DNA of 64,000 nt from Eremomyces bilateralis CBS 781.70 (taxonomy: Eukaryota): assembly GCA_010015585.1 (NCBI GenBank), contig ML975169.1, one strand, 5' to 3'. Below, piece by piece: positions 35,960 through 58,858 of the stretch. Numbering within the stretch: the first letter of the stretch is position 1; each line of letters begins with the position of its first letter. Under the pieces are notes generated by a model. That model saw only the letters and a program-made list of their open reading frames with translations, searched no databases and had not been told where the DNA came from. A program made the translations under genes and the position numbers.

Positions 35960-36601
35960 TCATTTCATACTCGGCGCCTTCCCGGACGGATCATCTTTGA
36001 TCGTCACATACCCCTCCTGTTCCCTCACCCGCTGCAACCACGCCTTCACATTCCCCCCGACCGCAAACCCCACCAGCTCCGCGAACTGGGTATACGCGAA
36101 CAGCGCGATGTCCGCGATCGTGTACATCTCCTCGACGAAGAACGTCTTCCCCTCCAGATGCGCCTCCATGGTGTCCAACGCGGCCTGCCCCCGCGTCTGT
36201 AGCCGCTCGCGCGTCTCAGCGCTCACGTTCTCCAGGCCGATCCAGTGGGTCGCGAACCGGAGCCCGGCGACGTACTGCTCGTGGCTGAACTGCTCGAAGA
36301 ACATCCAGCGCAGCACCTGAGTGACGCCGAGGTGGGTTGAGGGGAGGTAGGGCGTGTCTTTGGCAAGGTAGTAGAGGATGGCGCTGCTTTCGGGGAGGAC
36401 GGTGTGGGTAGCGTCGTCGAGGATGATGAGGGGGATGCGGCCGTTGGGGTTGAGTGCGAGATAGGCGGGGAGGCGAGTCTCGGCGGGGGTAGTGAGGAGG
36501 TCAAGGTCGGTGGTGTGGTAGGGGAGGCGGAGGTGGGAGAGGAGGAGGTGGACTTTGTAGCCGTTACCTGAGGGGATATTGGAGTCGTAGAGATGGAGCA
36601 T
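35960..36601 (-). CDS. Glutathione S-transferase (intronless)
   Basis: MLHLYD..SGNGYKV, YLALNPNGRIP, LPESSAILYYLA, WMFFEQFSHE, YTIADIALFAYT. Confidence 0.92.
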   Translation of the reverse strand: MLHLYDSNIPSGNGYKVHLLLSHLRLPYHTTDLDLLTTPAETRLPAYLALNPNGRIPLIILDDATHTVLPESSAILYYLAKDTPYLPSTHLGVTQVLRWMFFEQFSHEQYVAGLRFATHWIGLENVSAETRERLQTRGQAALDTMEAHLEGKTFFVEEMYTIADIALFAYTQFAELVGFAVGGNVKAWLQRVREQEGYVTIKDDPSGKAPSMK

Positions 36602-38245
36602 GGTGGCTTGCGGGATTCGGGATTCAGGGGATAGCTCGCAGGAAAGGACAAAGCTGTCGATTGAACAACAGACGGACTCAAATTGGAATTGGAACGGTTG
36701 GATATCTAGTACTCGGATGAAAGAGAGAAATGGAAATGGAGGTCTCGCGGTCGGAGAGCCGATCGCGTTGTACTTGTCTATGCCGCCAGGCCTGCCACGC
36801 CCTAGAGTAAGAGTACCTATCATGGCATTTCGAATTGTCCTATTCCATGTAAACCCTGACTTAGCATGTAGTAGGTAGTATGTAAGTAGTAGGTGCAACT
36901 GTCCAACACCACAACAACCCACTGTTCTGTCAGCGCTAGATCCTACAGTGCATTTTATTCCTATTTTCGTGAGACAGGTAACTATGTAGTAGAGTCTATT
37001 AGAGACTAACTGGAGAGGTTTTGCAACCTCGAAAACCATTTTACAACTCGATTTACAACTCCACAGAAAAAGCGGTTAATATCTCTATATACGGTTAGCG
37101 TATAAACCGAAATTTAAGCCTGAGGCAACAAGGCAACAAAAAGTTGTAAAAATTAATTTTAAGGCATCAACATTGTGGCTAAAGGCATCAAAATCTTTAG
37201 TTCCGGCCAATCAAACTTCACAAAAGTTTGTTAGCGCATTTACAACTGTGGATCATCAAAATTTACACCGTAAACTCCATTAGGACTGTGATGGATCAGA
37301 GGTCTGCAGACCTCTGAATTCAGGGCATAACTAACGCCTCGCACACTTTAGATAGATTCCTCCTTCATAGCAACAATTCAATGTTTGCCTCACGATTGGA
37401 GATTCCCTACAGTGAGACCCTTACAAAGATGCTGCGACACTGATCTCTCTCACTGGTTAATCAATAATAGGAATTCAGATCCTTTCAGTTCACAGCCGAC
37501 ATAAGCACCACCTTGATACTCCGTATGCCATTATCTCATTCGCAGTACTTCCTTAGCATTATCACTCTGTTCATTTAAAATGTTCTAAAAGTTAGGCCAA
37601 TGATGGCACCTCTTCTACGGTGGAAAAGCGCATCGGATCGACTTCAAAGACCGCCATGCAACAGTATCAGTACCAGTGAAAGTATTTCCAAAGTACCCGC
37701 AGAGTGCGATGATATCTATTCAAAATATTAAATACCGTACCTACGTACAGGATTTTTATTTTTTCGTGGTATGTAGCCCCGATAAATGCTAAACACGAAA
37801 ATATTGTGTACCTCTTGACAATACGATTCGAACCCCTGGTGCTGCCAGCTCAAGCCTCGTGTAGTTCACCGGAGAGGGGCTGCGACCAATATGTTCACAA
37901 CATCGTCAATTGCAGGACCAGTTTTGCTTGAGAAAACTGGCAAGTCGAGGGTGGACGGAATGGACAAGAGATTGCCAGCCTTGCGAGACAGTTAAAGAGC
38001 ATGGAAGACCCGTCATTGACAAATCAGGTTTGCTGGATTTCAATGACCGCCTCGCCCCGTTTCGTTTCGAGACTCTGTTGTCGATAGGGTCCCCTTTACC
38101 GTGATTGTCGGTATCACTTCGTTCATTTCATGTTAAGGATGGAATCAATGCAAGGGGAGACTGGAATCCCTTGCCGCATTGGGTGAAGATAGGTCGGCAT
38201 ATCTAGGAAGAAGGTCCTCTCGCCATACGCAGAAGCCAATGTCTC

Positions 38246-42072: not shown

Positions 42073-43006
42073 TTCTGTTGAACAGGATTGGAGCAAGAAT
42101 AGAGAGATATGAATACCATAGACAGCCATTCCCATCCACATCCGTTTTCATTTCCAATAAAAACGAAGTCAACGGCAGTAAAGGGAATCTTACCTAAGGA
42201 CGAAAAATAAACCTTTAGTAGTCTGGATTGATGTGGCAGCCCTTTTCATAGTTGTACTCTCTTGTTAGGCATGGTCTAAACCTGGAGAGGTCAGTGGACA
42301 TGCTCAGATATGGATACCATAAATCATGTAGCCAGTACCATAGCACAAATCAAAAGGCTTTGTGGAACCCTCGATTCGAGTTAGCGAATATTAACTTGGC
42401 CTGGTCTGCCATAAGCTCGACCTGGGAAACTCTCTCGACTCTCACGCAGTGGATCGATCGAGTATGCATCTAACGTATCGATATTGGAGTAAGTGCCGCA
42501 GAAAGCTGAGGATTGAACCTCAAGTTTGTGAGGATTTGGCTCTGGACAACGGAAATATTTTGATTCGCACAGGTTTAGTAGCACTTATTAGTACCACTTC
42601 AATATCTCCCAAGGGAAACGGAAATATTCAGTCCACAAGGTTTTTTAGCATTCTATTAATTGTATAGATAACTAAGTTATAGATTCTTCCTTTAATACTT
42701 CTAGATAAGGTAGCTGATGATCGTGACCGTCCTTGCCAATTACTTCCCTCCCGAACTCACCGGAAGCACCCCATCCAAATCATCACTCAAGAAAGTATCA
42801 CCCCAAGACTGAAACAGACTCCCCTTTCTACTTGGCCATCATGGTCATTCTAAGAGGGAACAACTTTCCCCGTGGGCCAACATCTGCTCCCAACCCTAGG
42901 GCATGGGACGGCTCCGGTTATGCAAGATTGGGGCGGGATATATGTTGGCAGCGCGGGTAGTCACATTAGGTACTGTTGTTCGGCACAGTCGAGCCATTTC
43001 GTCCGC

Positions 43007-44787
43007 TTATTTGGCACTGTCCGGCCGTACAACCGTAACTCCCGCCTCCTCATCGTCTGTTTGAACGCTTGGCAAATCCTGCTTTTCCTCGACCCTCTTC
43101 AGCCCCTTATCCCTGATGAATACCATCAACGCTAAACAGCACCCCATCGCGCCCGCCCACAAATAGAACACAGATCTCGCTGCCGCAACATAGGCGTTGA
43201 GAACATGAATCTTCTGGTCTTCTGGGAGGCCAGATATGTCCGGCATTTCGAACACGGACTGCTTAATACTCTCAGCCATGTCCACCGGGATGCTCATGGG
43301 GATGTTCGACACCAGCGTGCTGGAGAAGATGGCCGATGCGATGGCCAGCCCGGCTGAGCCGCCGAGCGCGCGGATGAAGTTCCTCGCACTGATGACGATT
43401 GCCCGATCCTCCTTTGGACTATGGGCCTGTGCGGCCACCAAAGCTGTTTGAGATTAGCCGTCCGTTCAAGAGCACCACCCGTGGCTTGTGGCTGACTTAC
43501 TCGGTTGGAAGACCAGCCCGACTCCAACACCCTCTATGACGAGGATGAAGACGATGGCGACGACTGGCAAGGTGCGGTTGAACAGGCAGTGCAACCCAGT
43601 GGCTATGGTCCAGCAAATGTAGCCCAGCCATATGACCTCGCCGTATCTATTCATGCGTGAGATGTACTGGCCAGAGAGTGCAGAGGCAATGGCCTGCGGT
43701 ATGACGATTGGGATGAGAAGAGCTGCCGATGTGAGCAGGCCCATCTGTCGAGCGCTCTGGTAGTATATTGGCAAGTAGTAGAGCACACTGTAGAAGACGA
43801 TGCCGATGAGGAAGTTCTGGGTAAGCATTGCTGCCAGGGCTTTGTTCTTCCAGAGCCTTACTTGACCTTATCAGCGCAGCCTCATGGTATCGTATTATTG
43901 GCACTCACGAGGAAACATGGGCAGTCGGGCAAACTTCCACTCATTCACGACGAACATCGCCAGTAACAGCGAGCCGATTGTCAGCATGGAGATGACCATT
44001 GGACTTGACGTCTGAAACTGCGTCCCAATCCCAGAAATTGGAATCAGAAGCACAATAGTGCCACCTGAACTCAACAGGATCCCCGCCCAGTCGATCTTCT
44101 TTAGCTTCGTCAAAACCGGCTCCGGGGGAATGGTCTGAGGTGGCAGCAGGAAGTACAGGAGCACAGCTACTAGGATGGCCAGTGGCGCGATGAACCAGAA
44201 GGTTGCTCGCCATGTAGAATTTCGAGTGAAAGCTGCCGCGACGAAGGGGCCGATAGTGTTACCTAGCCCAACACAGGAGCCGAGAATGCCCTGGTATCTT
44301 CATGCACACTCAGTTAGTACGGTACGCTGGAGAAATCATATAGGCATACTGACTTTCCACGTTGTTCCAGTGTCGTAACATCAGACACAATCATCATGAC
44401 CAACGCCATAATACCCCCGTTGGCAAGACCCGAAATACCCCTGAAGGCATACAGCTGTACCCCCGTCTGGGCAAACCCGCATAGCAGGTCGCCGAGCCCC
44501 AACAAACAAAGACATGAGATGAGGATGACCTTCCTACCCAGAATGTCCGACGCCCGGCCATAGAGCACCTGGAATGCCGTGTTGGCGATGAGAGACGATG
44601 TTCCGGCCCAGACGATGGTCGAAGAACTGTTCAGCTCTCTGCCAATGGTGGGCAGCGCCACGGCAATGGAGTTCTGGTCGATGTAGGTGATGAGGAGAGC
44701 TGAAGCCAGGGCGGCAAACACCACCATCAACCGGCTCCCTGTCAGGATGTTGGTTTGGTCATGGAGGGCATGCTTCTCCTCTGCCAT
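43007..44787 (-). CDS. MFS drug:H+ antiporter (DHA2, 14-TMS type); multi-exon
   Basis: LHDQTNIL..SRLMVVF, IDQNSIAVALPTI, LYGRASDILGRK, MMIVSDVTTLEQRGKYQG, KKIDWAG, YYLPIYYQ, RNFIRALGG. Confidence 0.9.
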
Positions 44788-44963
44788 GGCTGCGTCTTTG
44801 TCAGCTGGTTCAGCCTATCTGCTGCTAAGTGAGCAGCCAAAGAACCAGGTAGGTTATAAGAAAGGAAAGGCATATCTTGCAATGTTGCTCGGCACTGTAA
44901 TCGGAGCCACGAAGGACCGTCCTGGGCCATCCCAAATCCACAGTGGTGACTTACATGCCGTGT

Positions 44964-44980
44964 GCCGGCCGGCCGGCCGG
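44964..44980. promoter_or_regulatory. (CCGG)4 tract in the divergent MFS/amidohydrolase-1 promoter; candidate Zn2Cys6 site
   Basis: GCCGGCCGGCCGGCCGG; the same tract recurs at 56117 and a shorter one at 46071. Confidence 0.55.
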
Positions 44981-45128
44981 AGACTACCATCCTCAGCGGA
45001 GCAATTCTGAGAGCCTGGACATGGAGTTTACAATAGCACAACAGATAAGGAAGCCAACCCGGATTCAGGGAAGAATCTACGGGGTTCAAGCGATTCTACG
45101 AACCGACGCACCTCGACTACCGCCCAGC

Positions 45129-45875
45129 ATGACTAGCCTCAAGATCCAAGATCACCCTCAATACCAAGCCTCCATCGCCGCCGGCTTCGGCCACCGCCTC
45201 GGCTGGGGCTCCCGGCCGGCGCTCCTCCTCATCGACGTCTGCGTCGCCTACTACCAACCCGGCTCCCCGCTAGACATCACCCACAACCCCTCTGGCGCCG
45301 CCAGCGCACCCTCCATGTGCCGGCTCGTAGCAGCGGCGCGTGCAAGTGGCGTCCCCGTCGTGTGGGCGCAGGTACGGTACAACCACCCGCGGCTGCGCGA
45401 CGGGGGCGTTCAGGCGGCAAAGACGAAGACGATCCGTGCGTGGCAGGACGGCGACCCGCGCGGCCTGGATGCGCTGATGCCTGGGCTGGAACCGGCTGAG
45501 GGCGAGACGACGGTGCTGAAGCGGAACCCATCGGCGTTCTTTGGCACGACGTTGGCGACGGAGTTGCGGCTGCTAGGGGTCGATACGCTGGCAGTGTGTG
45601 GGGTGAGCACGAGTGGATGTGTGAGGGCGACGGCGATGGATGCCATGTGCTATGGTTTTCGGCCGATGGTGAGTAGGGGTTGTGGTGACGATCCCGAGTG
45701 ACTGGTTTGTGATAGATGCTGACTGTTGCTTGTTTGATAGGTGGTCAAGGAGGCGTGTGGGGACCGGTCGGAGATGATACAGCAACAGAACTTGTTTGAC
45801 ATGGACGCGTCGATTGGGGATGTTGTGGAAGAGGCTGAAGCGATAGCGCAGCTGGGGAGGTCGTGGAGTTTGTGA
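45129..45875 (+). CDS. Isochorismatase-fold cysteine amidohydrolase 1 (maleamate/N-carbamoylsarcosine amidase-like); 2 exons
   Basis: GFGHRLGWGSRPALLLIDVC, LKRNPSAFFGT, GVSTSGCVRATAMDA give an intact Asp-Lys-Cys triad. Intron 45669-45740 leads to EACGDRS. Confidence 0.92.
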
Positions 45876-46070
45876 TCGTAGGCCAATCACAACATTGAGA
45901 TTTCACATCATTGCTGCTCCATTCTATAGTACAACACATTCTAATATTCTTGGCCTCTGGAACGATGGTATTGTTAATTGTGCCCATATCTCCAAGTGTC
46001 TACGTATGTACGTACTTCCAGGTTCCAACAGCCCGTAGCATGGCTGGGTCCGGGGTCCCTGAGAAACATG

Positions 46071-46084
46071 GCGCCGGCCGGCGC
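46071..46084. promoter_or_regulatory. Palindromic GCGCCGGCCGGCGC upstream of the NCS1 permease
   Basis: Perfect 14-bp palindrome containing CCGG twice, ~370 bp upstream of ATG 46451. Confidence 0.45.
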
Positions 46085-46450
46085 TAGGAAATAAGTGGAA
46101 CTGGGCCCTGCCGGAATGGAGATGGTGCCAGGACCCCGGCCAGTCTAGTTTCCCTATCTATTGGGTCCAGATACAGAACAGACTATCTTTCACAAACCTC
46201 CAAGACAGCCACACCTCGCCGAGATGATACCGCGTACACCTATCGACTATCTACCAAATGGCTGGACTGCTCGTCCTCACATCTTCACGGTGGTCAGACT
46301 CGTGTATAAACACGAGCACGACCGACCGTGGCTCGGGCAATTCGGCAGCCGACATTGTTGAATCTGCTTGTCATAGCTGCCACTACTTGCAACATTCACT
46401 CTACTTCGCTGGGTCCTAAACAGACAGACCACCGTACAGAAGTTAACACC

Positions 46451-48106
46451 ATGTCCGACACGACTGAGAAGCACCAGGCGAAGAGCGTCGGTGCCGTCCG
46501 CGATGTCGAGACCGGCTCGTTTCTAGATGGCACGGTTGAGTCAATCGGGATGGACGATGTTCAGGCGCCCAAGGTCGGGGGTTCCATCTGGAAGTTGCTC
46601 TCCAGCGTGGGCGTAGAGATGCGCGGTGCCGAGCCTGTACCGGTTGAGAAGCGGACCGACACTCAGTTCGCCAACGTCTTCTACATCTTTGCGACGTCCA
46701 TGACGAGCTTGCTGCCGTGAGTGACATACGTTTGACTATGATATTGGAATCGACGACTGACAGAGACTAGAATCGGTATCGGCTCAGCTACTACCCTTGG
46801 CTTTGGTATGTCACTGAAGGCTGCGGCATGCATGATTGTCTTCTTGCAGTTCTTCTTTGGCCTACCGACCGCTTACATCGTGACGATTGCTCCGTTGACG
46901 GGCATGAGACAGATGATTCAGTCCCGATACTGCTTTGGGTACGTGCTCATCCCACCCCTCTTTCATTGTCATCCCCGGGGAGTGTCCATGTAGCTCACAC
47001 TTCTCAGGAAATACTGCAATTTCTTAACCTCTGTCATCGTCACTCTTACCGTCGGCGGCTTCGCCGTCACTGGCAGTATCAATGGGGGCCAGTGTCTCGC
47101 TGCTGTCAAGCCCGGCACCCTTCCCGTTGAGGGCGCCATATCCATCATCATGGTCATTTCCCTCGTTATAGGCTTCATGGGCTACCGTGTCATGCATCTT
47201 TTCACCCGCTGGGCATGGATCCCGAGCTTGCTGGCCATTTTCATTCTCGTTGGCGCTGCCGGCGACCAACTCTACCAGCAAGGCGCTCCTCGTGCTCATA
47301 GTGCCAAGGACTACATGGGCATGGTCGCCTTCGCTGCTGGCAACATGGTGACCTGGAGCAACGTGGCGGGAGACTATGCGTGCTATATGCCCCCCACAGC
47401 GCCGCGCTTTCGCATCGCCATGTACTGCCTGTTCGGAATCGCGCTGCCCTTCTCGCTTCTCATGACCCTCGGCGCGGCCATTGGAGGCGCTGTACCCAGC
47501 ATCCCCGCCTGGGCGGCCGCCTATGAACTGCACGGCATCGGCGGCGTCATCGGCACCATCCTCACCGGGCGACTGGGCGACTTCGGACGCTTCATCCTTG
47601 TCATGTTGGGTATGTCGGTCCTAGCGACCTGCGCGCGAGACGTTTATACCATATCTTTCAACATCCCGGCGTTCGCACCTATTGCGCGCAAGGTGCCGCG
47701 TGTGGTCCTCGCGATTCTGGCCACGGCCGCCATCATCGGAATCGCCATTCCCGCATCTAAGTCCTTCGTCAGCTCTGTGACGGCCTTCCTCAGCATCATC
47801 GGGTACTACGCCGGCGCGTCCGTGACGTGCTTCCTGACCGAGTGGCTGTACTTCCGCAAGGCCGACCCGGCGAGCTTCGATCCGGCAATCTGGGACGACG
47901 GGCGGGCGCTGCCGACGGGGCTGAGCGCGCTGGCGTCGGTGCTGATTGCCTGGGGCTTTATTATTCCTTCCATGAAGACGACATGGTACACGGGGCCGAT
48001 TGCGGAGAAGACAGGCGATCTTGGGTTCGAGTTTGCAGTGGTGATTGCGCTATTGGCGTATATTCCTATCCGGACGGCGGAGATCAAGATCAGGGGCCGG
48101 CTCTGA
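46451..48106 (+). CDS. NCS1 purine-cytosine permease family transporter (Fcy2/Tpn1-like); 3 exons
   Basis: GVEMRGAEPVP, TGMRQMIQSRYCFG, WSNVAGDYACYMP, FLSIIGYY, WDDGRALPTG, WYTGPIA..GDLGFE. Confidence 0.9.
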
Positions 48107-48462
48107 GGCGTGGAATTGGGAGTAGCGGAAGTGTCCAAGTTCTAAGTAATAGATTTAATTTTGTGGTAACTAGTAGATGGATGGATGGCTAATAATAGAT
48201 GCGTGGACTGCATTATTCCTTGACAGAATTGCCTGCCGGTTGTTGTAAATATGCCGGTCTCTGGAGGCCCACGATATCCACCAATGCTCTGTATTCCCTT
48301 GAATGGTAGTGGGGCTCAACGCGTACATTTATAATAAATCTTGGGTTCTCTCTCTCTCATATATATTTGAAGTCAATATATTCCTCGAGCCTCTATACCG
48401 ACGCCTTCAAAAATCTTTCGAACGATAATTCGACTCAAAGATATTGCCAAGGACCAGCCAGC

Positions 48463-49711
48463 ATGGCATCGCAAGCAGGGCAGATTCGCCAGCCCCTCCA
48501 ACCGTCCATCCGTCCCATCCTAGACCCTGAATACGTAACCCTCCACGACTCACTCGTCCAATACGTCGAGCCTTTAGAATCGAAGCCATGGGACCCTGAA
48601 AATCGCAACAAGCCTTCGGCATTGGCACACGCACAGCCAAAGCTCGTCGACGTCGGCCAGTGCTTCGACAAGGTCCTCGGAAACGTGCAGCTCCGCGTGT
48701 TCGTGCCGGAGGGCGAGGCGCCGGCCAAAGGATGGCCGTGCATGGTGTGGTATCACGGCGGCGGATGGGTGAATGGTGGTTTGGGGAGTGATAATGGCTT
48801 CTTGAGCCATGTTTGTCGATGTGAGTCTGGACATGAGAGACGGCTAGAGAGAACACAATGGATTAACTAGTCCCCAGATACGCGATGCATGGCCATCTCT
48901 GTCAATTATCGCCATGCACCCGAAGATGTGTACCCAGCTGCCCTAGAAGACTCGTTCTGGGGTTTTCAGTGGATAAGAAATAATGCAGCTACGCTCTCCA
49001 TCGACATTTCACGCCTGGTCCTGGGAGGATGTTCAGCGTACGTCAAACCATCTTCTATCTCTCTCATGACCCAATGGCTGATCCTCAGTCATAGCGGCGG
49101 CAATCTTGCTGCAGTCATGTCCCTCAAGGCTGGCCTTGCGAAGCTATCTCCAGCACCCGTATTCCAGCTCCTCATCTGCCCCGTAATAGACTGTACGGCG
49201 ACGGTGAACACGGCGTGGGCAACTACGCAACACTCGCCGTTCCTCACTCCCGGGCGCATGACCTGGTACCAGGACCGGTACCTCCCGAATCCATCGGACC
49301 GGGCCAATTGGGACGTCTCGCCGTGCTTCGCGCCGCCAGAGACGCTGGCATTGAGCCCTAAGACATTCGTCGCCATTGCCGAGTGCGACTTGCTCGCGCC
49401 CGAGGGGCTTAGGTATGCTGAGCTTTTGCGCAAAGCAGGCGTTGAGGTCGAGACAAAGACCTACAAAGGCGCTACGCACTCGATTCTTGTTCTAGCTGGG
49501 TGAGTTCACATTACCTGCGTCATAACTAGGCACATCTGCGTATGAACGCTGCGGTATGCTAGGATCTTTTCATTTTGCTGACCACTGCCCGGCAAATAGA
49601 ATCCACCAAATTGGACAGCAGTTGGTGCATGACGCCTGTGCTGTGATCGCTCGGGAGCTGGGCACTGAGTACGACCCGTCAACCTCGCCAATTCTCTCCC
49701 AGAGCGGGTGA
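48463..49711 (+). CDS. HSL-family alpha/beta hydrolase (esterase/amidase); 4 exons
   Basis: YHGGGWV oxyanion motif, SVNYRHAPE, GCSA|GGNLAA nucleophile split by an intron, AECDLL and YKGATH. Confidence 0.9.
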
Positions 49712-50088
49712 GGCCATCTCACTATTTGTGCCGGTACTGGTAGTGTTATCTGATATGGAGCCCGATTGCTGGGGTCGTGGAGACTGGCGTGGGTTCCGGC
49801 ACGATATGGGCCGGGGTTATGGGGTAGAGTAGTGAGATAAGCTGCCGGAACCGGCACATCGGCCTCGAGTTGCATCGTGTAGGTAATTGCGCGCAACAGG
49901 CAAAAATTACCAGAATGCCCTAGACTAACAGACGAATAGAGTTTCGAAGTACACCCTGGACGGCAATTGATATCAATAAATCATGAGTTGTGAGTTAAGA
50001 GAGGGAAAAATCGAGTCCCAAGCTGTGCTATCATAGATGTGTTCAAGGTAAATTATCCGAATCATCTCAGCCTCAGTGGCAGTAAACG

Positions 50089-50808
50089 ATGTCCTCGGCT
50101 ATCAACCCTTCATTCCATCCAGCGTACGCAAAAGAATGCGGTGACCCGTCCCGAACGAAGCGCCTCGGCTTCGGAGCATGCCCGGCCATCTTGTTTGTCG
50201 ACGTCTGCGAAGCCTATTTCGCCCCGTCGTCACCACTGTGTCTAAGTCCCGAGACAGTCGAGCGGTCCTCGACAACCATCGCCGCCCTCCTGCGAGCCGC
50301 CCGCAAGACTGGCATCACGAATAAGGCCGGGGAGCCGGACGACCTCCCCATCATCTACGCCCAGACGCTATATACTCACCCCGATCTTCGCGATGCCGGC
50401 CTCCAAGCCCAGAAGACTGGCCACGCCTCCTTATTCTCCAGCCGAAATCCCGAGCGTCTCAGCGGTGTACCTCACAACCGGCCCGCCCTACAACCGGCGC
50501 CGAGTGACCTAGTTCTGGCAAAGAAATACCCCTCACCATTCTTCGGTACGAACTTGGCCACGCAGCTGACGGCCTTGGGGGTAGACACCCTCGTGATCGC
50601 TGGGTATATGACGAGCGGATCCGTCAGAGCCGCAGCGCTGGACGCGATGCAGGCTGGTTTCCGGGCCATGGTGGTGGCTGATGGGTGCGGTGATCGCGGC
50701 GAAGAGACGCACTGGGCGAATCTCATGGATGTCGGCGCCAAGTATGGTGATGTAGTAACACTGGAAGAGGCGGATGCTGGATTGAAGGCTGGATGGGGGC
50801 GGTCATGA
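50089..50808 (+). CDS. Isochorismatase-fold protein 2 (nucleophile position Ser instead of Cys), intronless
   Basis: RLGFGACPAILFVDVC, KKYPSPFFGTNL, GYMTSGSVRAAALDA, CGDRG, DVGAKYGDVV. Confidence 0.9.
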   Translation: MSSAINPSFHPAYAKECGDPSRTKRLGFGACPAILFVDVCEAYFAPSSPLCLSPETVERSSTTIAALLRAARKTGITNKAGEPDDLPIIYAQTLYTHPDLRDAGLQAQKTGHASLFSSRNPERLSGVPHNRPALQPAPSDLVLAKKYPSPFFGTNLATQLTALGVDTLVIAGYMTSGSVRAAALDAMQAGFRAMVVADGCGDRGEETHWANLMDVGAKYGDVVTLEEADAGLKAGWGRS

Positions 50809-50877
50809 TCCCCGTACATAGCTGCAGAGTGATAATGACCAGCCATTGAAGCTTCCTAGTTTCCATGTTTTTCCCAA

Positions 50878-53381
50878 TCATGGTCGCCATCCAGTCCAGC
50901 CTAGGTTGACATAACCTTGTACAATATCGGCAAAGTCGTTATCAAACGGTTCTCGGAGAAGTGCGGCTGTGGTCGATTCGGGGGAAGGCAGCGTCCCGAA
51001 GCCGTCTTCATGGTAGCCAGCAAATGCTTCAGAGCCGTCAATGGTCTGTTGACTAGGATGTGCGGTCCTACTATCCACCGCTGTATGGTTATGAAGGTAC
51101 GTCCCGTGCGCGGCCGCATCGCTGAGAAGACGCAAATTATCGGTGTAGTTATGTGGTCCCTGGAAGCCATCATGGGCTGGCTGTTGAGTTGTATCATTGA
51201 CTTCTCCGTACATATTTGCCGTCGATCCATGGCGTCTGGGAGCCGTCTCATGGTGAATATTGTGATCCATCTCTGGCGGCTGCTCGTTTCTCTGGGCCTG
51301 CGGCGATCGAGTGGCATCGGGTGAGTGGCCGACCGATGCAGAAAGGAGTGCCTCATGCGTTGAGACCTCATTCAGCAACGGGCTGCCCTGAGAAGGTGGC
51401 CGATTGATGACTTTGCGGAGGATGTCCACCCACTCCGAAGCCGTCGGCCACTTGTCCTCAAACGTGGAGAGCACCTCGAGCGACCGGTGAACTATCTTGG
51501 CCGCCGAGGAGGCGACGCTGGGGCAGAGCCGCGGCCACTTGTACACGTAGCAGGCCAGGGAGCCGCAGATATAGGTACAAAAGGCCAGCATAGCGGGGAA
51601 TCCGTCATCGGCGGAGCGCAGGCAGAACCACACATCGATGGCCTCATAAAGGTCGGCAACGTTGGTGAAGAGCTCATGGGACATTTGCTCCCAGAATTTT
51701 GCCAGCGCCGGGTCGGATCGGCTTGGTGACGGGAGCAGCTGAGCGACGATGCTCTTGAGGTAGGTCCGTCGGAGAACAATGTTGTTTAGCCGCGTGATAG
51801 TTATTATGGACAGGTATGCAAGGTCGACGTGCTCGGCCTTGTAGCCCCTTAGGTTCCAGGCAGACCACCTATGCTGCACCGGGATGTTATCCTCCCAGTC
51901 CCGGAGAGTTTCCGAGATCCGCTGGTAGTGGCAGTTCGGCTCCCACGGGTTCGAGTCCAAGGTAGGCGAGTCGTGAGTATCGCCGTAGGCATCTCGTGCA
52001 ATCATACCCCAAAGGTCGTGCGCTTGGATGAGGGTCGCAAAGAGAGACCTGGTAGGAAGTGAGGTCAGAGAGCGTTTGCGCTGCGCTGGTGATGTTCCCT
52101 CTAGTGCAGCCCGCTCAGGGGGCACTCGGCCAAATGCAAAGTCATTCTCCTCACCGGGTAGAAGCGTGGTGATGTCTGATTTGGCAAACGAAACGGGCAG
52201 ATGTTGTTGTGTGTATAGGTTGTCGTGGTTCTGGATGACCCAAAATGTTCTCCTCGCGCGCTCTTTGTTGACAACTTCGTCTGCGGATGCCCCCTGTGGG
52301 AGAATATATGTTTCTTCACGATGGAGGCGTAGTAACCCAGCCATTCTGACGGCAATTCCCATGTTGATGGCGCTCCTCTCGCGGTCAGCTCTGCCCCAGT
52401 CCGCCATGCCAAGTAAGAAGAATGCCTGTGTGTTCTCTAGACTGGGCTTCCACATCTCATCGGCGATCATGACATGGGCAATGTCAATGAAGAACTCAGA
52501 TGCTCCTTGGCTGCTACCGAACCGTTGGCAGAGCTCCGGGGCAAAACGAGCCGAGATGCCGAGCATGCTCAAAAGAAGAAAGGCATTGACGGAGTCCCTG
52601 TCGTTCGTCATCTGCTCTAGGAAGAGAGCTTTGGGGATGAAGCCTATCCCGCGGTTAGCACTGTGTCGGGTTAGAAGTTTGCTCGCCTGTGCACATACCG
52701 ACTTGAAGGCAAGTTGTCAAGAAGACACGGCAGCCTTGCATTAGCTCTTCGTGGGGTGGAAGTAGGTTCCAGATATCGGTGGCAGAGTAGATCTCCACTT
52801 TCCGAGCTACAGATGGCGAGAGTAGGTTCTGAACCCTAGTGATGGAGTCACTGTTCGTGCTGTAAGTCCCAAGGTCGCCACGCCAAACTTTCGGTGATGG
52901 AATACCTTGTGAAGGTCATTGGCGCCTCATTCGATCTGAAAAAGGGCTCATCAGCGTTGTCGCCAGACATGAAGAGTACTAACCATACACTGTCGATCCA
53001 TTGCTTACCATAGACCCCGGTTCTTGAGGACTTGTGCGTTTGATACGAAACTAGCGACGTAAGCCTTTAATAGGAAATAGCATGTCTGTAAATAAAGAAT
53101 ATCTTACCTTTCTATCCACAGTATCACCTCTGACAGCAAGAGCGCTTGTTGTCTGTCATCAGTCTACTACCTTCTTGAAGGTGTACAATACTCACCACGA
53201 CTTGGTATCTTCTGGCCCTGCTCGACGACATGGAATACAGGGAATGCGGCCTTCATGCTGCACACATTTCATCCGCAGACGACGGCATCTGTATGGAATG
53301 AGTAATGATCGTTAGAGTATGGGGACAAGGTAAGAACCTCCTACAGGCAACCGCCGACCTCTTTGGGCGCGGCATCTCCAT
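50878..53381 (-). CDS. Zn(II)2Cys6 transcription factor with fungal-specific TF middle domain; multi-exon
   Basis: Spliced N-terminus RSAVACRRCRRLRMKCVQHEGRIPCIPCRRAG...C; PSLENTQAFFLL, MGIAVRMAGLLRLHRE, ERARRTFW. Confidence 0.9.
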
Positions 53382-54137
53382 TTCCTGGGACGGGGTGAGC
53401 TGACTGTTACCAGTTGGACGGTCCATGTGTGCTTGTATCAATGGAACGTTTGCCTTGTGCTACAAAGAGGACTGTGAATATGTGGACTGAACTCGGAAGT
53501 CGTTCGAAGTTTGGCAGCCCCGGACCGGTGCCTGCACTCAACACCACTACTAGAGATTGGACTTTTGCAAGACCTGTCGCAAGATGCCCCTGTTGGTTTC
53601 TACTGCCCTAACATCCCTTTCACTGCCTATTACCCCTAGGCTAAGCCTATTTCGGACTGCTTAGTCTCTTCCCATGTATTTAGTTATCTTCAACTGTTTG
53701 GCCAGCTAGATCTCCTTTTGGGAGAGACAATGGGAATCGTCAAGACCAACTTGCGTTGTGACTCTGCAGCAACTGAGCTTAAGCAGCGAACGTGGTTAAT
53801 CATCACCCACGCGAAATGCGACAAGACCTCCCTCAATACACTCTCTATGTCAGTATTCTAGGCCTTATCTGACTCGACACTATTTAACACTCCACCGTGA
53901 GCGGGTCAGAGTTGTGTGGGCCTATGGTAGCATGGTTTAGATAGTGGGTCTTTGTCAACCTGGTTGGCTATGATAGGCCATTACCATATTAGCACCCTTC
54001 TTATCTCCTCCCTCCTAGGGTAGGGAACCCATCAACAATAACAATCTGGGGAGAATTATGGACACCCTACTACGTAGTACTCCGTACAGCTGGTTCTTTG
54101 CTAGATGCTGGTATTCTGGCCCTACAACCTCCAGTGC

Positions 54138-55897
54138 CTACGCTGATCCTTGTCCCAGCGCCGGAAGTCCCATCGCCGCCAGCTTGGTGTTCACCTCATC
54201 TAGATGGTCCATGAAATGGCCTTGGAGATTGTCCCAGAACTCGCCTTCATACCCGGGGATTTCTGTGATAATTCAAGTCAGAGGGTTTGTGGCCAAGTAA
54301 TTGAATTGAGGGATTTTGGCTTACGCTTGATGGTCGGGTTCCTCTCCAAGGCAAACTTGGTCAGACTAAAGTGGTTGTTTAGGTGGAACATGAAGCCTAT
54401 TCACAAAAGTTAACATTGGCATCCGTGTACCATTCGTAGAGACAACGAATCACTCACTTAAAGCATCCTTGCCGGCGACCTCATGTTCCAACTGCTTCGT
54501 CGTCGCTTCTTTCCACGCCCCGTAGGCATCCCCATGTGGCATGTACGAATTCTCGCAGCTCAGACAGCCCTCCTGCACGTCACGCACAGACCCGTGGTAC
54601 TCGCCATAGATCATGCCGAGCATCTCGGTCGACATGTTGCGATGGTAGTAGGGCGGCCGGTACGTGTCGAGCGCCGTGATATGCTTGGCCGTGTACACGG
54701 CGAATTCTGACAGCGCCACCTTGGGCGTCTTGGACTTGGCGATGAGGACGGTGTAGATGGTCGGGTCGCACTGCTCCTTCATCGCGCAGGCGAGCGGCAC
54801 GAACTTCTCCATGGCGTACTTGAAGGGCACGTAGCTGCCGTGCCATGCCACCACGTCAAAGGGTGTGTGGTTCTGCTTGTACGCGAAGAGCTGGCCCGCG
54901 AGTTTGTATGTGACTATCAACGGCATTAGTTTTCAGATTGGGATACTTCGGGTGCAGATTTCTTACTCTCCCACTTGGACTGGTCCATGTCAAATGAAGC
55001 TACGGGGTACTCGAAGTCGCGAGGATGCGCCAGGCCATTAGAGCCGATTACACCGAGGTCGGGAAGCTCGAAATGGGAGCCAAACACCTCGTGCACATAT
55101 CCTCTCGAGGGACCGTCAGGTAGCGACACCTTCCACCGAAGTCCAGCCTGGATGACACACAGCTCACCCGGCCTGACCATAAGCCTACCTAGCTCAGTCT
55201 GGATTTCGAGTCGGCCGACCTGCGGCAAGATCAAGAAGTCGCCGTCGTTATTGCAGAACGCCTTCTTCTCCATCGAAGCGTTGCACGAGTACAGGTGCAT
55301 TGCCAAGCCCTCTTTTAGCGTCGGATCGCCCCAGCCGCCTATCGTCTTGAGTCCGTGGATGAAAGTCACCTGGTCCTCCTCCTCGGGGTACTCTAGGGGA
55401 CCCCATTCGTATGTGAGAGGGGTAAACTGGACGTTCGGGTTCTGCGGGGAGAAGCATGCTTCAAGCTGGGGCTGGTCAGCCAAGATGCTCTCGCGGGAAG
55501 TGAGGGCGTATTGGACTTAAATCGGGGCTTGCTGGCATGGGTCGGGGCCGCGCGTGTGCAACGGCGGGCCGTATGCGGTACATCCAGACATGTTGGAGTG
55601 TGTCGCGGTACGATGCAAATGGAGTCCCGTTAAGCTGTTCTGAGTATAGGTCATATGGGCATCGCTGCGGCACGTTCCGTCCAGGCTCTGGAAGGGCATC
55701 TGGTCTTTCATGGCGTAAGTCAAATCCGGTTCTGCGAATGGTTCTTCAACTCACACAGCTTCTGAGGAGAAGTAGTTACCAAAGCCGAGCTGGTATCTGT
55801 ACGGGTCATTCTCTTTCGGCGGAGTTGTTCGCGACCCAGCGGCAGATGCACCGAAGGTCTTGGGTACCGATGGCGTCAAGATGGAGGCGTCACCCAT
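54138..55897 (-). CDS. Homogentisate 1,2-dioxygenase-like (HgmA-fold) ring-cleavage dioxygenase, divergent; multi-exon
   Basis: DPYRYQLGFGNYFSSEA, PQRCPYDLYSEQLNGT, WMYRIRP, NNDGDFLILPQ, FELPDLGVIGSNGLAHPRDF, PFDVVAWHG, RPPYYHRN..E and PHG iron-ligand motifs. Confidence 0.92.
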
Positions 55898-56116
55898 TTT
55901 GGCTATGACACAAAGCTCAACAAGCAAGAATCAGAAAGAAGACTGCTGCTCAAAAGATGTCTTGAATTTGTGCGTGTCAAACCCCTCAAATCTAGCTTTT
56001 ATCTGATCAAAATCCAAGCACGTGGCGGCCGCGACAGAAAGGTAGCTTGTCCTGCGCTCACTTACATGACAATTGTCACCATGTGTTGATTGATGGTTTA
56101 TGCCCGCTCGTATCCT

Positions 56117-56135
56117 GCCGGCCGGCCGGCCGGCC
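56117..56135. promoter_or_regulatory. (CCGG)4 tract in the divergent dioxygenase/P450 promoter; candidate Zn2Cys6 site
   Basis: GCCGGCCGGCCGGCCGGCC, with the same core as 44964-44980. Confidence 0.55.
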
Positions 56136-56492
56136 CCATCGGCTTGGACGGGCCCAATGCTCTGATTCTGTCCTATCTACAACGTAATAATACACGCAGC
56201 AGCGGCAAGCAACTCCCCTATCAGACTCCACTCTGCTCTGGCGGCCCGGACCGGGACGTGCACGCCGATAGACCGAGAGGCGGCGAGATGATGGGCCTCA
56301 ATGGTCCCTACATGTCGATTTCATGTCGACCTAGCCCCGAGATCACGGATAATCGGAGGAATCTGAAGGAGCGAGTAGCGAATCAATGTTATCATATCTC
56401 TAAGTTCGCGGCTCTATAGCATCTACTTTCTGTCTCACTTCCGAGATGCCTCCTCACAAACACTTTAACTGCACAATTAGCGGTTCGACACC

Positions 56493-58469
56493 ATGGCTAT
56501 TACTTTGAGTAACGATCAACTTCCCGCCTTTGCTCAATCGCCTATACGAGTGGGTGCAATACTCCTCGTGCTAGGTGTTGTTCTTTACCAGATCCTAAAG
56601 AGGTCTTTCAAGAGATACCCATGTCCCCTACCGCCGTCACCACCGGCAGAGCCGCTCTTGGGCCATTTCCGAACATTGCCCCCCGAGAATGCGCACCTCA
56701 AGCACATGGAATATGCCAAACGATTCAGTGGGTGACATTTGGAAACATTTATCATACGGCGGCTAAGACCAACCCAGATTCGGACATTGTTTACTTCAAT
56801 GTTTTGGGCAACCACACCATTGTCTTGAATAGCCAGAAGGTTGCCAATGAAATCCTCGACAAGCGAGGCGCCAACTATCAGGACCGGCCTGGCTTCGTCC
56901 TCTTTGATGTCATGGGATGGGGTCTCACCCTGACCTTTATGCCGTATGGCCCGCGCTTCAAGCTTCACCGCTCGGCGCTGCAGCATGGCTTCACCAAGAC
57001 GGCTATCGTCAATTATCGGCCCATCCAAGAAGACGAGGCGAGACAGGCCATAGCCCGGATTCTGAAGCGACCCACGGAGTGGGATTTCTCTCTACGGAGG
57101 TAATCAAAGCCCATATTATGGCAACCGGCACGGAGTAATAACACTGTCTAGGTTCGCATCTGCCATCGTCTTGCGCATCGGGTTTGGCGTCACTGTGCGG
57201 TCTGACGATGACCCGTACATCAAGATTGCCATCGACGCAAACATGGCGACGGCAAAGGGTGGAAACCCGGGAGCTGCCCTCGTTGACTACATGCCCCCGT
57301 GTAAGCAGGTCACGGCGAAGCCGCCCCAGTCGATCAGCACCTCTGACTAGAACGTCGCAGTCCGCTTCATTCCCGAGTTTCTCAATTTCTCGGGCACTCT
57401 ACAGCACGCCCGAAAATGGCGATGGGCCATCAAAAACCTCCATGATATCCCCTTTGCAGCTATTAAGAAGGAGTTTGTGAGTTGGTCGCGAGATGCACAC
57501 AGAAGAGCTGGTTTGACCCAAGGTCTAGGACGAGGGAACTGCGAACCCATCATTTGCTTACTCACTCCTGAGCAAATACACGCAAAATGAGGAGAAGGGA
57601 ATCCCCAATCAGCTTGAAATGAAGGACATCCAAGGAGCTTCCGGATCCGTGTTCATCGCTGGATCAAACACCGTAAGTACACGGTCCATACATTTAGCAA
57701 CGTGTGAACTAATCGACGCCCAGACTTTGGCCACGACAACCGTTGCCCTTCTCAACATCATGCGAAACCCTGAGGTATTCATGAAGGCGAGGGCGGAACT
57801 CGACCGCGTGGTTGGTGAAGACCGACTCCCAAGCCTGGCCGACCGCCCCAACCTGAGGTATCTTGACTATGTGGTTGAAGAGACCACTCGATGGCGGCCG
57901 CTATCACCTATCGGTATCCCGCATAAGTCCCTGAAAGATGACACCTACAATGGGATGTTCATCCCGGCAGGGTAGGTGAACAGCCGATGGTGTGGTGGTG
58001 ATGAGTCCCCGACTGACGCTTGCTATGACAGAACATTCGTCTACTACAACACGTACGCCATGAGCCGCGACGAGAATGTTTACAAGAACCCTGAAATCTT
58101 CAACCCTGATAGATACACGCCAAAGGAAGAGGGCGGCGATGGGGAGCCCTTCCTCGTCGGTCCATTCGGATTCGGCCGCAGGTAAGACAACATCGACCGC
58201 GCCAATACGGTTTTCTCCTTACTAACATCAGCATTAGGATCTGTGTTGGACGGCATCTCGCCCAGGCGTCCGTATGGATCGCTGTTGCAACTATGATTGC
58301 AACGACGGACATCTCGAAGCCTGTAAGTCCAGACGGAAGGCCGATTGATCAGCCGATCGTGTTTAGCACCGGGTTGTCGAGCCATCCTGGAAAGTTTGAT
58401 GTCAATTTCCAGCCGAGGTCTGAGAAAGCTACTAGGCTGCTTGCTCAGGCTGTCGGTGATGCCCAATGA
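56493..58469 (+). CDS. Cytochrome P450 monooxygenase (OrdA/CYP64-like clan by appearance); multi-exon
   Basis: N-terminal TM helix, PPSPP hinge, AGSNT I-helix, EETTRW (ExxR), FNPDRY and the FGFGRRICVG heme motif split by an intron. Confidence 0.95.
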
Positions 58470-58858
58470 GCTCATGATTTGGTGATGTTGATGCAGGGTA
58501 GGGAATGAGAAGTGAATCGGCGCTGGAGAAGTCAGAGAATATTCCTGCGACCGCCGGCCTTGGGTACATGCTCATATATTGGCAGAAAAGGTGTAAATAA
58601 ACAGTTGAAGTCAGTCGATACGAATAGAACGTGAAGTGCAAGCTCTCCCATCGATGTCTGCCATTGAACCCAACTGTGGAAGTGACTTGCGCAAATTCAT
58701 AACTGTCTTCTGCATCCCAACTAGGCATGCCTGCAGCATAAGAGCAGCGAGGCTTTAAGCCCGATTCGTAGTCGCCTATTGAAACCCGGATGGCCTGCAT
58801 ATGCTAATGTCTCAGAGCTTCAAGTCGCTCAGGGGACGATCAATACGGTCTCCCGCTC

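Follow-up and report, generated by a model that had tools for sequence, protein, structure and literature searches.

Here we describe a cluster of eight genes in the fungus Eremomyces bilateralis CBS 781.70, at positions 43007 to 58469 of a 64,000-nucleotide stretch of contig ML975169.1 (assembly GCA_010015585.1), called the window below. The cluster encodes two transporters, two isochorismatase-fold proteins, an alpha/beta hydrolase, a Zn2Cys6 transcription factor (TF), a dioxygenase related to homogentisate 1,2-dioxygenase (HGD), and a cytochrome P450 (P450). These genes form a real, conserved syntenic unit, which recurs in rearranged form in a metagenome contig and, in part, in named ascomycete genomes; its dioxygenase belongs, by alignment and tree, to a separate subfamily of HGD-like enzymes. 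To judge from the protein families, there is about an even chance that the unit is a probably co-regulated catabolic cluster for an aromatic or heteroaromatic compound that contains nitrogen. The eight genes, with the placement of their Pfam matches in brackets, are as follows.

43007-44787, minus strand: major facilitator superfamily (MFS) transporter, DHA2/TRI12-like, of the "tetracycline-efflux" type; at least four exons, with MFS_1 and TRI12 on four open reading frame (ORF) pieces (MFS_1/TRI12, 43010-44814, minus).
45129-45875, plus strand: ISO1, predicted isochorismatase-fold cysteine amidohydrolase resembling N-carbamoylsarcosine amidohydrolase (CSHase) and NicF, 224 amino acids, one intron at 45669-45740 (Isochorismatase, 88 bits, 45.2-45.7 kb, plus).
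46451-48106, plus strand: NCS1 permease of the purine-cytosine (Fcy) type, about 510 amino acids, two introns (Transp_cyt_pur, 46742-48103, plus).
48463-49711, plus strand: family-IV serine hydrolase of the hormone-sensitive lipase (HSL) type with HGGGW and GCSAGG motifs, three introns (Abhydrolase_3, 150.6 bits, 48310-49500, plus).
50089-50808, plus strand: ISO2, isochorismatase-fold protein without the catalytic Cys (TSGSVR), 239 amino acids, no intron, identical to public protein P0121 (Isochorismatase, 90.7 bits, 50086-50805, plus).
50878-53381, minus strand: Zn2Cys6/Fungal_trans TF, convergent with ISO2, with an intron near 53.3 kb that interrupts its Cys-rich DNA-binding motif (Fungal_trans, 50881-52716, minus).
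54138-55897, minus strand: dioxygenase of the HGD family ("KEQ" subfamily), with five introns in its orthologs, public model P0001 (HgmA_N and HgmA_C, 54453-55745, minus).
56493-58469, plus strand: microsomal-type P450, 531 amino acids, intact, with seven introns that are all seen as transcript joints, public model P0235 (p450, 56513-57972, plus).

A first-pass annotation of this DNA had proposed these eight families, their positions, and the end points of the cluster, and all were recovered in our Pfam scan of 145 stop-to-stop ORF pieces, each 70 amino acids or longer, between 39.8 and 64 kb: the families lie in 43007-58469 in the order listed, and 43007 and 58469 are the outermost bases of the MFS and P450 stop codons, respectively. 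The first 40 kb were covered by 125 of 152 ORF pieces of at least 95 amino acids, the shortest and some nested pieces being dropped. Among these 145 and 125 pieces (shorter ones lie outside the scan), there is no fumarylacetoacetate hydrolase (FAH) or 4-hydroxyphenylpyruvate dioxygenase (HPPD) domain, and the only glutathione S-transferase (GST) in the window, at 35963-37075 on the minus strand, scores 32.9 bits against a cut-off of 171 for the NCBIfam model of maleylacetoacetate isomerase (MAI, maiA); the earlier statement that FAH, MAI, and HPPD are missing nearby thus stands. An NCBIfam scan of ten exon pieces returned no family at its cut-off. Upstream of the cluster lie the housekeeping genes Sec24, Ndc1, PPR, cwf18, and NCBP3 together with the GST and a subtilase, and downstream lies a DUF7136 gene (Pfam). 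Gene models were refined with scripts and with spliced transcript contigs from a public run (X1) that carried the label "RNA?" by guess, using, among those listed, 15 of 27 joints and 8 of 40 contig pieces. Since these contigs have GT..AG or CT..AC joints at exon borders, we treated them as transcript derived; they cover 30 of the 30 bins of 42800-58800, and all eight genes are covered by spliced contigs.

The strongest evidence that the eight genes belong together comes from their recurrence elsewhere. A profile scan with an alignment of 22 ISO2-clade proteins over metagenome contigs kept 79 loci, all of which were compared with the window's exon pieces by tblastn. One of them (L001, 20.7 kb of a 151,828-base contig) carries all eight genes inside 16 kb, in the order NCS1 (minus), ISO1 (minus), MFS (plus), hydrolase (plus), ISO2 (plus), TF (minus), HGD (minus), P450 (plus), with identities to the window from about 35% (parts of NCS1 and TF) up to 92%. 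Compared with the window, the block MFS-ISO1-NCS1 has been inverted as a whole, and the flanks consist of a spermidine synthase gene and a flavin monooxygenase (FMO)-like gene, the window's subtilase, GST, and DUF7136 genes being absent there; the unit has therefore been kept while its surroundings changed. A 3.2-kb contig (L002) carries hydrolase-ISO2-TF, and in both contigs the TF ortholog holds the same position adjoining ISO2. In the other 77 of the 79 loci, only the isochorismatase relative was found, with no relative of HGD, P450, NCS1, or Abhydrolase_3 and a weak MFS match in one (L020). The FMO-like gene of L001 (18463-20310, minus) adjoins the P450 gene there and has no counterpart beside the window cluster; it may be accessory to the L001 copy or unrelated.

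Named genomes extend this picture. P450 and HGD genes carry consecutive accessions or locus tags in all nine genomes checked, that is, E. bilateralis, Thozetella sp., Pleurostoma richardsiae, Xylariomycetidae sp. FL2044, Podospora conica, Microdochium trichocladiopsis, Rhinocladiella similis, Meristemomyces frigidus, and Cladophialophora chaetospira. Apart from the P450, no gene is tied to the dioxygenase as constantly as ISO2: ISO2 and the dioxygenase gene share a contig in nine named species besides E. bilateralis, as well as on a 17-kb contig (P0012/P0160), and in the eight species with accessions or tags for both they lie two to six genes apart (two in Exophiala spinifera, Podospora aff. 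communis, Microdochium, and Rhinocladiella; three in P. conica; four in Xylariomycetidae and Meristemomyces; six in Pleurostoma). The public E. bilateralis models for the dioxygenase (P0001), ISO2 (P0121), and the P450 (P0235) all lie on one 396,544-base contig, and carriers span Dothideomycetes, Sordariomycetes, and Eurotiomycetes. Because all eight genes recur, rearranged, in L001, and with the named genomes, chance adjacency is excluded; the first-pass annotation had named a lack of synteny in other fungi as a finding that would speak against it, and synteny is what these loci display.

Two further observations bear on the history of the unit. First, a second pairing joins a KEQ-type HGD (58 to 65% identical) to a distant isochorismatase-fold protein without the Cys on a shared contig in Mollisia scopiformis, Mytilinidion resinicola, and a second locus of Pleurostoma (P0172, P0176, P0178, P0179, and P0181 with P0015, P0018, and P0023; the isochorismatase-fold proteins are named "N-carbamoylsarcosine amidase" by their sources), and the link between the dioxygenase and a cysteine-less partner therefore looks older than the eight-gene cluster. 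Second, the dioxygenase of the window, which comes from a Dothideomycete, is 80 to 86% identical to proteins of Sordariomycetes and Eurotiomycetes but only 70% identical to that of the Dothideomycete Meristemomyces, which branches outside (P0001-P0014); this closeness across classes hints at horizontal spread of the cluster.

By its domains and iron ligands, the dioxygenase is an HGD-family enzyme. Pfam places HgmA_N (203.3, 62.8, and 41.1 bits) and HgmA_C (82.3 bits) over three exon pieces, and the best solved-structure match is the HGD 9pz4 (3.4e-137). The NCBIfam equivalog model TIGR01015 (cut-off, 510.75) gives 193.7 and 140.9 bits on two exon pieces, the whole spliced protein being outside this scoring. 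The His-Glu-His Fe(II) ligands are kept, with YYHRN, STEM, and MPHG aligned to human His335, Glu341, and His371 (ligand numbers as in preprint 10.64898/2026.06.02.729205). The position of human His292, which hydrogen-bonds a ring hydroxyl according to the same preprint, is Gln in the window dioxygenase and in 29 KEQ rows of our alignment, so that the substrate-contact His of HmgA is absent. Gln also occupies this site in many other fungal paralogs (RDQ, KDQ), and the change alone is therefore no proof of a new substrate. Further, the FPPRW stretch is YTAKH in the window dioxygenase, and its lid reads GEYHGSVRDVQEGCLSCEN. A Glu at the position of human His365 was considered as a marker of new function and rejected, as basidiomycete and yeast homologs that have His292 carry Glu there too.

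In a FastTree phylogeny of 121 HGD-like proteins, in which support values are local only, 30 rows form a clade with support of 100 and have KEQ where human HGD has FDH; the window dioxygenase sits in a 15-row subclade of it (support, 99). The 13 rows for which linkage to an isochorismatase-fold gene on one contig is known all fall inside the KEQ clade, a count in which unlabeled rows were not assessed for such linkage. These data define a separate KEQ subfamily of HGD-like enzymes, to which the dioxygenase of the cluster is assigned by its sequence.

The two isochorismatase-fold proteins, both of which the first-pass annotation had taken for amidohydrolases, differ in their catalytic residues. 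ISO1 has the complete Asp-Lys-Cys triad, its LLIDV, LKRNPSAF, and TSGCVR segments aligning with the sequences of CSHase and of structure 3ot4; its best solved relatives are CSHase (2.5e-22 and 3.5e-21) and 3ot4/3uao (6e-19), and its L001 ortholog, 67% identical, likewise has TSGCVR. ISO1 is thus, unlike ISO2, a complete predicted NicF/CSHase-like amidase. ISO2 also finds CSHase as its closest solved relative (1.9e-29, with a Ser aligned to its Cys; a further match reaches 7.2e-22), and, in support of that annotation, both proteins are, among solved structures, nearest to N-carbamoylsarcosine amidase, 3ot4/3uao, and 4l07/4l08. We take 3ot4/3uao to be the maleamate amidase NicF and 4l07/4l08 to be Ami. 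What does not hold for ISO2 is the catalytic assignment: the nucleophile position is non-Cys in 22 of 22 members of its clade (10 Ser, 5 Ala, 4 Asn, 3 Gly, and no Cys), whereas Asp38 and Lys145 do not vary and the N-terminal motif ECGDPSRT is conserved. ISO2 is therefore a Cys-less amidase paralog and may be a noncovalent hydrolase or a ligand-binding pseudoenzyme. A predicted complex of ISO2 with the 612-residue exon of the TF scored 0.00 in a run made without an alignment, a score that speaks neither for nor against binding.

The surroundings of bacterial relatives of these proteins (13 loci, 70 ORFs scanned) are heterogeneous and include CoA-transferase/aconitase, hydantoinase, AMP-ligase, and nic-like genes; an Amdase-family (maleate-isomerase-like) neighbor occurs in 3 of the 13, and one locus (L061) resembles a nicotinate-type (nic) cluster. 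A Rut-like pyrimidine route, offered earlier as an alternative, fails: against the RutB equivalog of NCBIfam, with its cut-off of 377.95, ISO1 scores 36.5 bits and ISO2 33.9 bits, and no other Rut-type family is among the cluster's Pfam matches.

The remaining proteins are assigned at the level of families. The permease, for which the earlier assignment to the purine-cytosine (Fcy)-type NCS1 family is borne out by Pfam, NCBIfam, and protein-atlas clusters, scores 82.8 bits on one exon for the ncs1 subfamily (cut-off, 353), and its nearest atlas clusters are generic purine-cytosine permeases; the gene model agrees with a transcript piece starting at 47007, and the L001 ortholog is 41 to 52% identical. 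All characterized NCS1 substrates are, to our knowledge, N-heterocycles. The best NCBIfam matches of the MFS transporter are tetracycline-efflux MFS models, all far under cut-off, and its ortholog (L001 6004-7797) is 59 to 86% identical per exon. The introns of the hydrolase gene (48821-48877, 49038-49094, and 49499-49598) are GT..AG joints in transcript contigs, and its L001 ortholog is 55 to 60% identical. The P450 is of the membrane-anchored microsomal type, its spliced ORF carries the heme motif FGFGRRICVG, and its best solved relatives are CYP1B1, CYP17, CYP1A2, CYP2A, and cinnamate 4-hydroxylase.

A shared promoter element gives indirect evidence for a common regulation of part of these genes. 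The palindrome CCGGCCGG occurs ten times in the window against 1.4 expected copies, a number reached in 0 of 100 shuffles, and eight of the ten copies lie inside the cluster. Seven of them are found at three promoter positions:

44965-44980: three overlapping CCGGCCGG copies in the divergent MFS/ISO1 promoter; the ISO1/MFS spacer of L001 has one.
46074-46081: one CCGGCCGG copy, 377 bases before the NCS1 start codon; in L001, too, the NCS1 gene is preceded by a copy.
56118-56133: three overlapping CCGGCCGG copies in the divergent HGD/P450 promoter; the HGD/P450 spacer of L001 has one.

One further copy lies within the coding sequence of ISO1, toward its 5' end. L001 has three copies against 0.3 expected, one in each of the same three intergenic regions as in the window, and the element is mostly preceded by TG, a flank common to both loci. 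CGG/CCG palindromes are the kind of site that Zn2Cys6 factors bind. TG-CCGGCCGG is thus a candidate site for the cluster's own Zn2Cys6 factor, and its distribution suggests co-regulation of at least five genes.

From the protein families, we propose a catabolic route in which the substrate would be taken up by the NCS1 permease, perhaps together with the MFS transporter, whereupon the P450 would hydroxylate it to give a para-diol of the hydroquinone type. A neofunctionalized HGD-family Fe(II) dioxygenase would then cleave the ring beside one hydroxyl, turning the heteroatom-bearing carbon into an ester- or amide-type carbonyl, as in methoxyhydroquinone dioxygenase; the HSL-type hydrolase and the cysteine amidase ISO1 would cut these bonds to give ammonia and a maleyl-type acid; and the Zn2Cys6 factor would activate the genes, probably via TG-CCGGCCGG. 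Two substrate classes may fit all of the predicted enzymes: (i) a pyridone or hydroxypyridine, degraded via 2,5-dihydroxypyridine, and (ii) a phenol with an amino, amido, or carbamate substituent (an aminophenol or benzoxazolinone, for example), which would be degraded via an aminohydroquinone, the cleavage of which may yield a maleyl-type amide close in shape to maleamate. Precedent for such a cleavage exists. According to Lubbers et al. (2021, PMC8336404), the HGD-like MhdA of Aspergillus niger converts methoxyhydroquinone to 4-hydroxy-6-methoxy-6-oxohexa-2,4-dienoate, a methyl ester, its neighbor OmeA hydrolyzes the reduced ester, and the next gene encodes a tetracycline-resistance-type MFS transporter; PcMHQD1/2 of Phanerochaete chrysosporium perform the same methoxyhydroquinone cleavage, as described in a review (PMC11634970). 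Given the MhdA precedent, it is as likely that a substituted hydroquinone is cleaved to an ester or amide as that 2,5-dihydroxypyridine is the substrate.

Several observations weigh against this proposal. Every step of the proposed pathway is inferred from family membership. The ISO2 clade, having no catalytic Cys, cannot by its sequence act as a covalent cysteine amidase of the NicF/RutB type, and the hydrolase, which the first-pass annotation had cast as a deformylase, looks like an ordinary family-IV enzyme: the 47 solved-structure matches of its exon are carboxylesterases or lipases, none named formamidase or deformylase. The cluster contains no gene for a maleate- or maleylacetate-type end product. 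In the dioxygenase, the lid Tyr is kept, GEYHGS aligning with human GHYEAK; this Tyr binds the homogentisate carboxylate in HGD (PMC11634970), and its retention hints at a carboxylate or carbonyl side chain on the substrate, a group missing from plain 2,5-dihydroxypyridine. With respect to linkage and regulation, Thozetella retains the P450-HGD pair, yet its ISO2-like gene is on a different contig; 2 of the 10 window copies of CCGGCCGG lie outside the cluster; the exact palindrome is absent upstream of the hydrolase, ISO2, and TF genes, where looser CCGG-N1-2-CCGG forms occur; and it is absent from L002. Finally, the transcript contig listed for the dioxygenase gene of this strain encodes a truncated protein, as described below.

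A bolder form of the proposal would see here the first opening of a nitrogen-containing aromatic ring, of the pyridone or aminohydroquinone type, by a dioxygenase in a eukaryote and thereby a ninth central ring-cleavage pathway of fungi. A curated database of 2026 gives only eight central ring-opening intermediates in fungal aromatic catabolism, and HGD-family enzymes act on just two of these, homogentisate and methoxyhydroquinone (PMC13094099). The hxn system of Aspergillus nidulans is the only eukaryotic pyridine-ring pathway in print and is dioxygenase free (PMC9304392). In this bolder form, a recruited HGD-family enzyme would do the job of NicX, ISO2 would be a novel type of hydrolase acting on the ring-fission product or the ligand sensor of the TF, and the near-identity of the dioxygenase over three ascomycete classes would reflect horizontal spread of the whole cluster; we hold this combination as tentative and on balance improbable. 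Like the hxn regulon (PMC9304392, PMC5746545, PMC8478523), the window cluster would be a fungal N-heterocycle cluster with its own TF and transporters. Unlike in hxn, where the ring is reduced and then opened hydrolytically, the dioxygenase is the sole candidate ring opener here, and the two systems share no enzyme family: no hxn-type molybdenum-cofactor hydroxylase, FAD monooxygenase, cyclic imidase, or amidase-signature enzyme is among the cluster's Pfam matches.

The first-pass annotation had interpreted the cluster more narrowly, as a convergent counterpart of the bacterial maleamate pathway (NicX/Hpo, NicD, NicF/Ami, NicE). In this special case of our proposal, which we consider unlikely, a hydroxypyridine or pyridone would enter through the NCS1 permease and be converted by the P450 to 2,5-dihydroxypyridine, the HGD-fold enzyme would form N-formylmaleamate, the alpha/beta hydrolase would deformylate it, and ISO1 would deamidate the resulting maleamate. 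The resemblance is greatest for ISO1, with its full NicF/CSHase-type triad and its matches to the presumed NicF and Ami structures, and an alpha/beta hydrolase could in principle serve the deformylase step after the proposed oxidative cleavage of a para-diol ring. The cluster also holds exactly two candidate C-N hydrolases and a permease of the N-heterocycle type, many ISO2-clade metagenome proteins are named "maleamate amidohydrolase" by their sources, and maleate-isomerase-family neighbors occur in the 3 of 13 bacterial loci mentioned above. Moreover, HGD-family enzymes can cleave hydroquinones without a carboxymethyl group, as PMC8336404 and PMC11634970 report. On the other hand, CSHase matches both isochorismatase-fold proteins as well as or better than NicF does, the hydrolase bears no likeness to a formamidase and belongs to family IV (Abhydrolase_3), unlike the Abhydrolase_1 protein of the bacterial locus L061, and the lid Tyr that binds a carboxylate is conserved. 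The only ring-cleaving enzyme of the cluster has the HGD fold rather than that of NicX (a NicX-specific model was not run), the hydroxylase is a P450, and ISO2 is an extra Cys-less paralog for which the model has no role. No Asp/Glu-racemase or Amdase-family (NicE-type) gene, and hence no maleate isomerase, is among the cluster's Pfam matches. The one fungal pyridine pathway in print, hxn, opens its ring hydrolytically and without a dioxygenase (PMC9304392). Of the maleamate interpretation, then, the conserved unit, the ISO1 amidase, and the permease stand, whereas ISO2, the hydrolase, and the missing maleate isomerase speak against it, and it had overlooked the mhdA precedent.

That precedent would also allow a pathway without nitrogen, in which a lignin- or plant-derived substituted hydroquinone would be degraded in the manner of mhdA-omeA: the P450 would make or demethylate the hydroquinone, the HGD-like enzyme would convert it to an ester, the HSL-type esterase would hydrolyze the ester, and the isochorismatase-fold proteins and the NCS1 permease would serve side reactions or another substrate. 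The A. niger module is the nearest characterized precedent in that a non-tyrosine HGD-family dioxygenase stands beside a carboxylesterase-type hydrolase and a tetracycline-efflux-type MFS transporter (NRRL3_10111, 10110, and 10109; PMC8336404), and in both systems, in the window cluster by proposal, cleavage of a heteroatom-substituted hydroquinone gives a product that needs a hydrolase; the loss of the amidase nucleophile in ISO2 is also in keeping with it. The likeness is one of gene composition and description: the window dioxygenase falls in the KEQ clade, apart from the RDQ-type enzymes, in a tree that does not contain the MhdA sequence. Unlike the A. niger module, the window cluster has a P450 in place of the FAD hydroxylase VhyA and adds the two isochorismatase-fold proteins, NCS1, and a Zn2Cys6 factor of its own. 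Since ISO1, ISO2, and NCS1 are members of the conserved unit and ISO2 is a highly constant partner of the dioxygenase, we regard a nitrogen-free pathway as quite unlikely.

Less probable still, indeed highly unlikely, is a peripheral route into homogentisate catabolism of the phenylacetate or tyrosine type, with a P450 like PhacA/PhacB and the dioxygenase as a second HmgA. The dioxygenase shares its fold, all Fe ligands, and the lid Tyr with the enzyme of the fungal tyrosine/homogentisate cluster (hppD, hmgA, fahA, maiA), the sources annotate it as homogentisate 1,2-dioxygenase, and a P450 beside an HGD gene is reminiscent of the phenylacetate route. The partner genes FAH, MAI, and HPPD are, however, absent from the pieces scanned in the 64-kb window, none of the 57 P450 relatives listed is named phenylacetate hydroxylase, and the dioxygenase forms a distinct clade that has other constant neighbors and is tied to isochorismatase-fold genes. 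Its substrate-contact residue (His292 to Gln), lid, and FPPRW stretch differ as well, in the numbering of the preprint cited above. A secondary-metabolite biosynthetic cluster, or mere neighbors without shared function, can be dismissed as very improbable: P450s, MFS "exporters," and Zn2Cys6 factors are common in biosynthetic clusters, but no polyketide synthase, nonribosomal peptide synthetase, terpene synthase, or prenyltransferase domain is among the ORF pieces scanned in the window or the L001 flanks, and the named genomes, together with the rearranged set of all eight genes in L001, refute a chance neighborhood.

Whichever substrate applies, what is new here is that a module of HGD-like dioxygenase, hydrolase, and MFS transporter is extended by a P450, two isochorismatase-fold proteins, an NCS1 permease, and a dedicated factor. 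The cluster appears to be undescribed, as the first-pass annotation had assumed: we found no paper that joins HGD with isochorismatase, maleamate, N-carbamoylsarcosine, hydroxypyridine, or benzoxazolinone in fungi, subscription-only papers and supplements being outside this search. The KEQ enzymes would be a third HGD subfamily, with constant and different partner genes, in at least 12 ascomycetes including black yeasts. Black yeasts are known for the use of unusual aromatic compounds. The cluster may offer a view of how fungi recover nitrogen from plant or xenobiotic N-aromatics, and it supplies a natural case of an amidase paralog that has lost its nucleophile and is nonetheless conserved, and a candidate pair of cis-element and factor in TG-CCGGCCGG and the Zn2Cys6 protein.

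In E. bilateralis itself, the dioxygenase gene carries a defect:

55466-55520, minus strand: dioxygenase intron 2, whose donor is defective (TTAAGT in place of GT) and which a transcript contig retains.

The other four introns (55705-55754, 54914-54966, 54396-54456, and 54263-54324) are spliced in transcript record 4, which is colinear with the genome over 54967-55704, so that 55466-55520 is retained while the introns on both sides are removed. The L001 ortholog has an intron GTATGG...CAG at the same codon boundary (PD|LEACFS), and the homologous stretch of the window starts with TTAAGT; the donor G is therefore a T in the window. The retained-intron form, which the transcript contig listed represents, ends after 123 codons, whereas removal of 55466-55520 gives a full 492-residue frame including PDLEACFS. 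Public model P0001 equals the window gene letter for letter except for one splice choice, a cryptic GTCCAA...GAAG intron that turns PDLEACFS into PDLTCFS. With 15 of the 27 transcript joints listed, a minor in-frame splice form of the dioxygenase mRNA may exist beside the retained one. The dioxygenase has probably lost its function in this strain, and the pathway may be crippled in this genome by the broken donor; as the rest of the frame is intact, the change would be recent.

A few further features of the locus deserve mention. Transcript contig record 3 spans the hydrolase gene and ISO2 and reaches into the convergent TF gene, with a spliced intron at 49879-49939 (plus) between the hydrolase stop and the ISO2 start, which may be an intron of an untranslated region or a sign of hydrolase/ISO2 read-through; a contig spanning several genes is no proof of a single transcript. 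The GST gene at 35963-37075 (minus) is a 371-residue ORF with GST_N_2 and GST_C_2 domains and a long N-terminal extension, its matches to glutathione-dependent disulfide oxidoreductases and maiA are weak and all far under cut-off, and, having no counterpart in L001, it probably lies outside the cluster. An 877-residue open frame at 31539-34169 (plus), in the most GC-rich part of the window (GC, 0.63), has no Pfam match, and long open frames lie on the opposite strand too; it may encode a low-complexity protein or be a compositional artifact. Near the left end of the window and 42 kb away from the cluster, an exon of an intradiol ring-cleavage dioxygenase (930-1457, plus; Dioxygenase_C, 87.7 bits, and Dioxygenase_N) adjoins a DHH-family gene.

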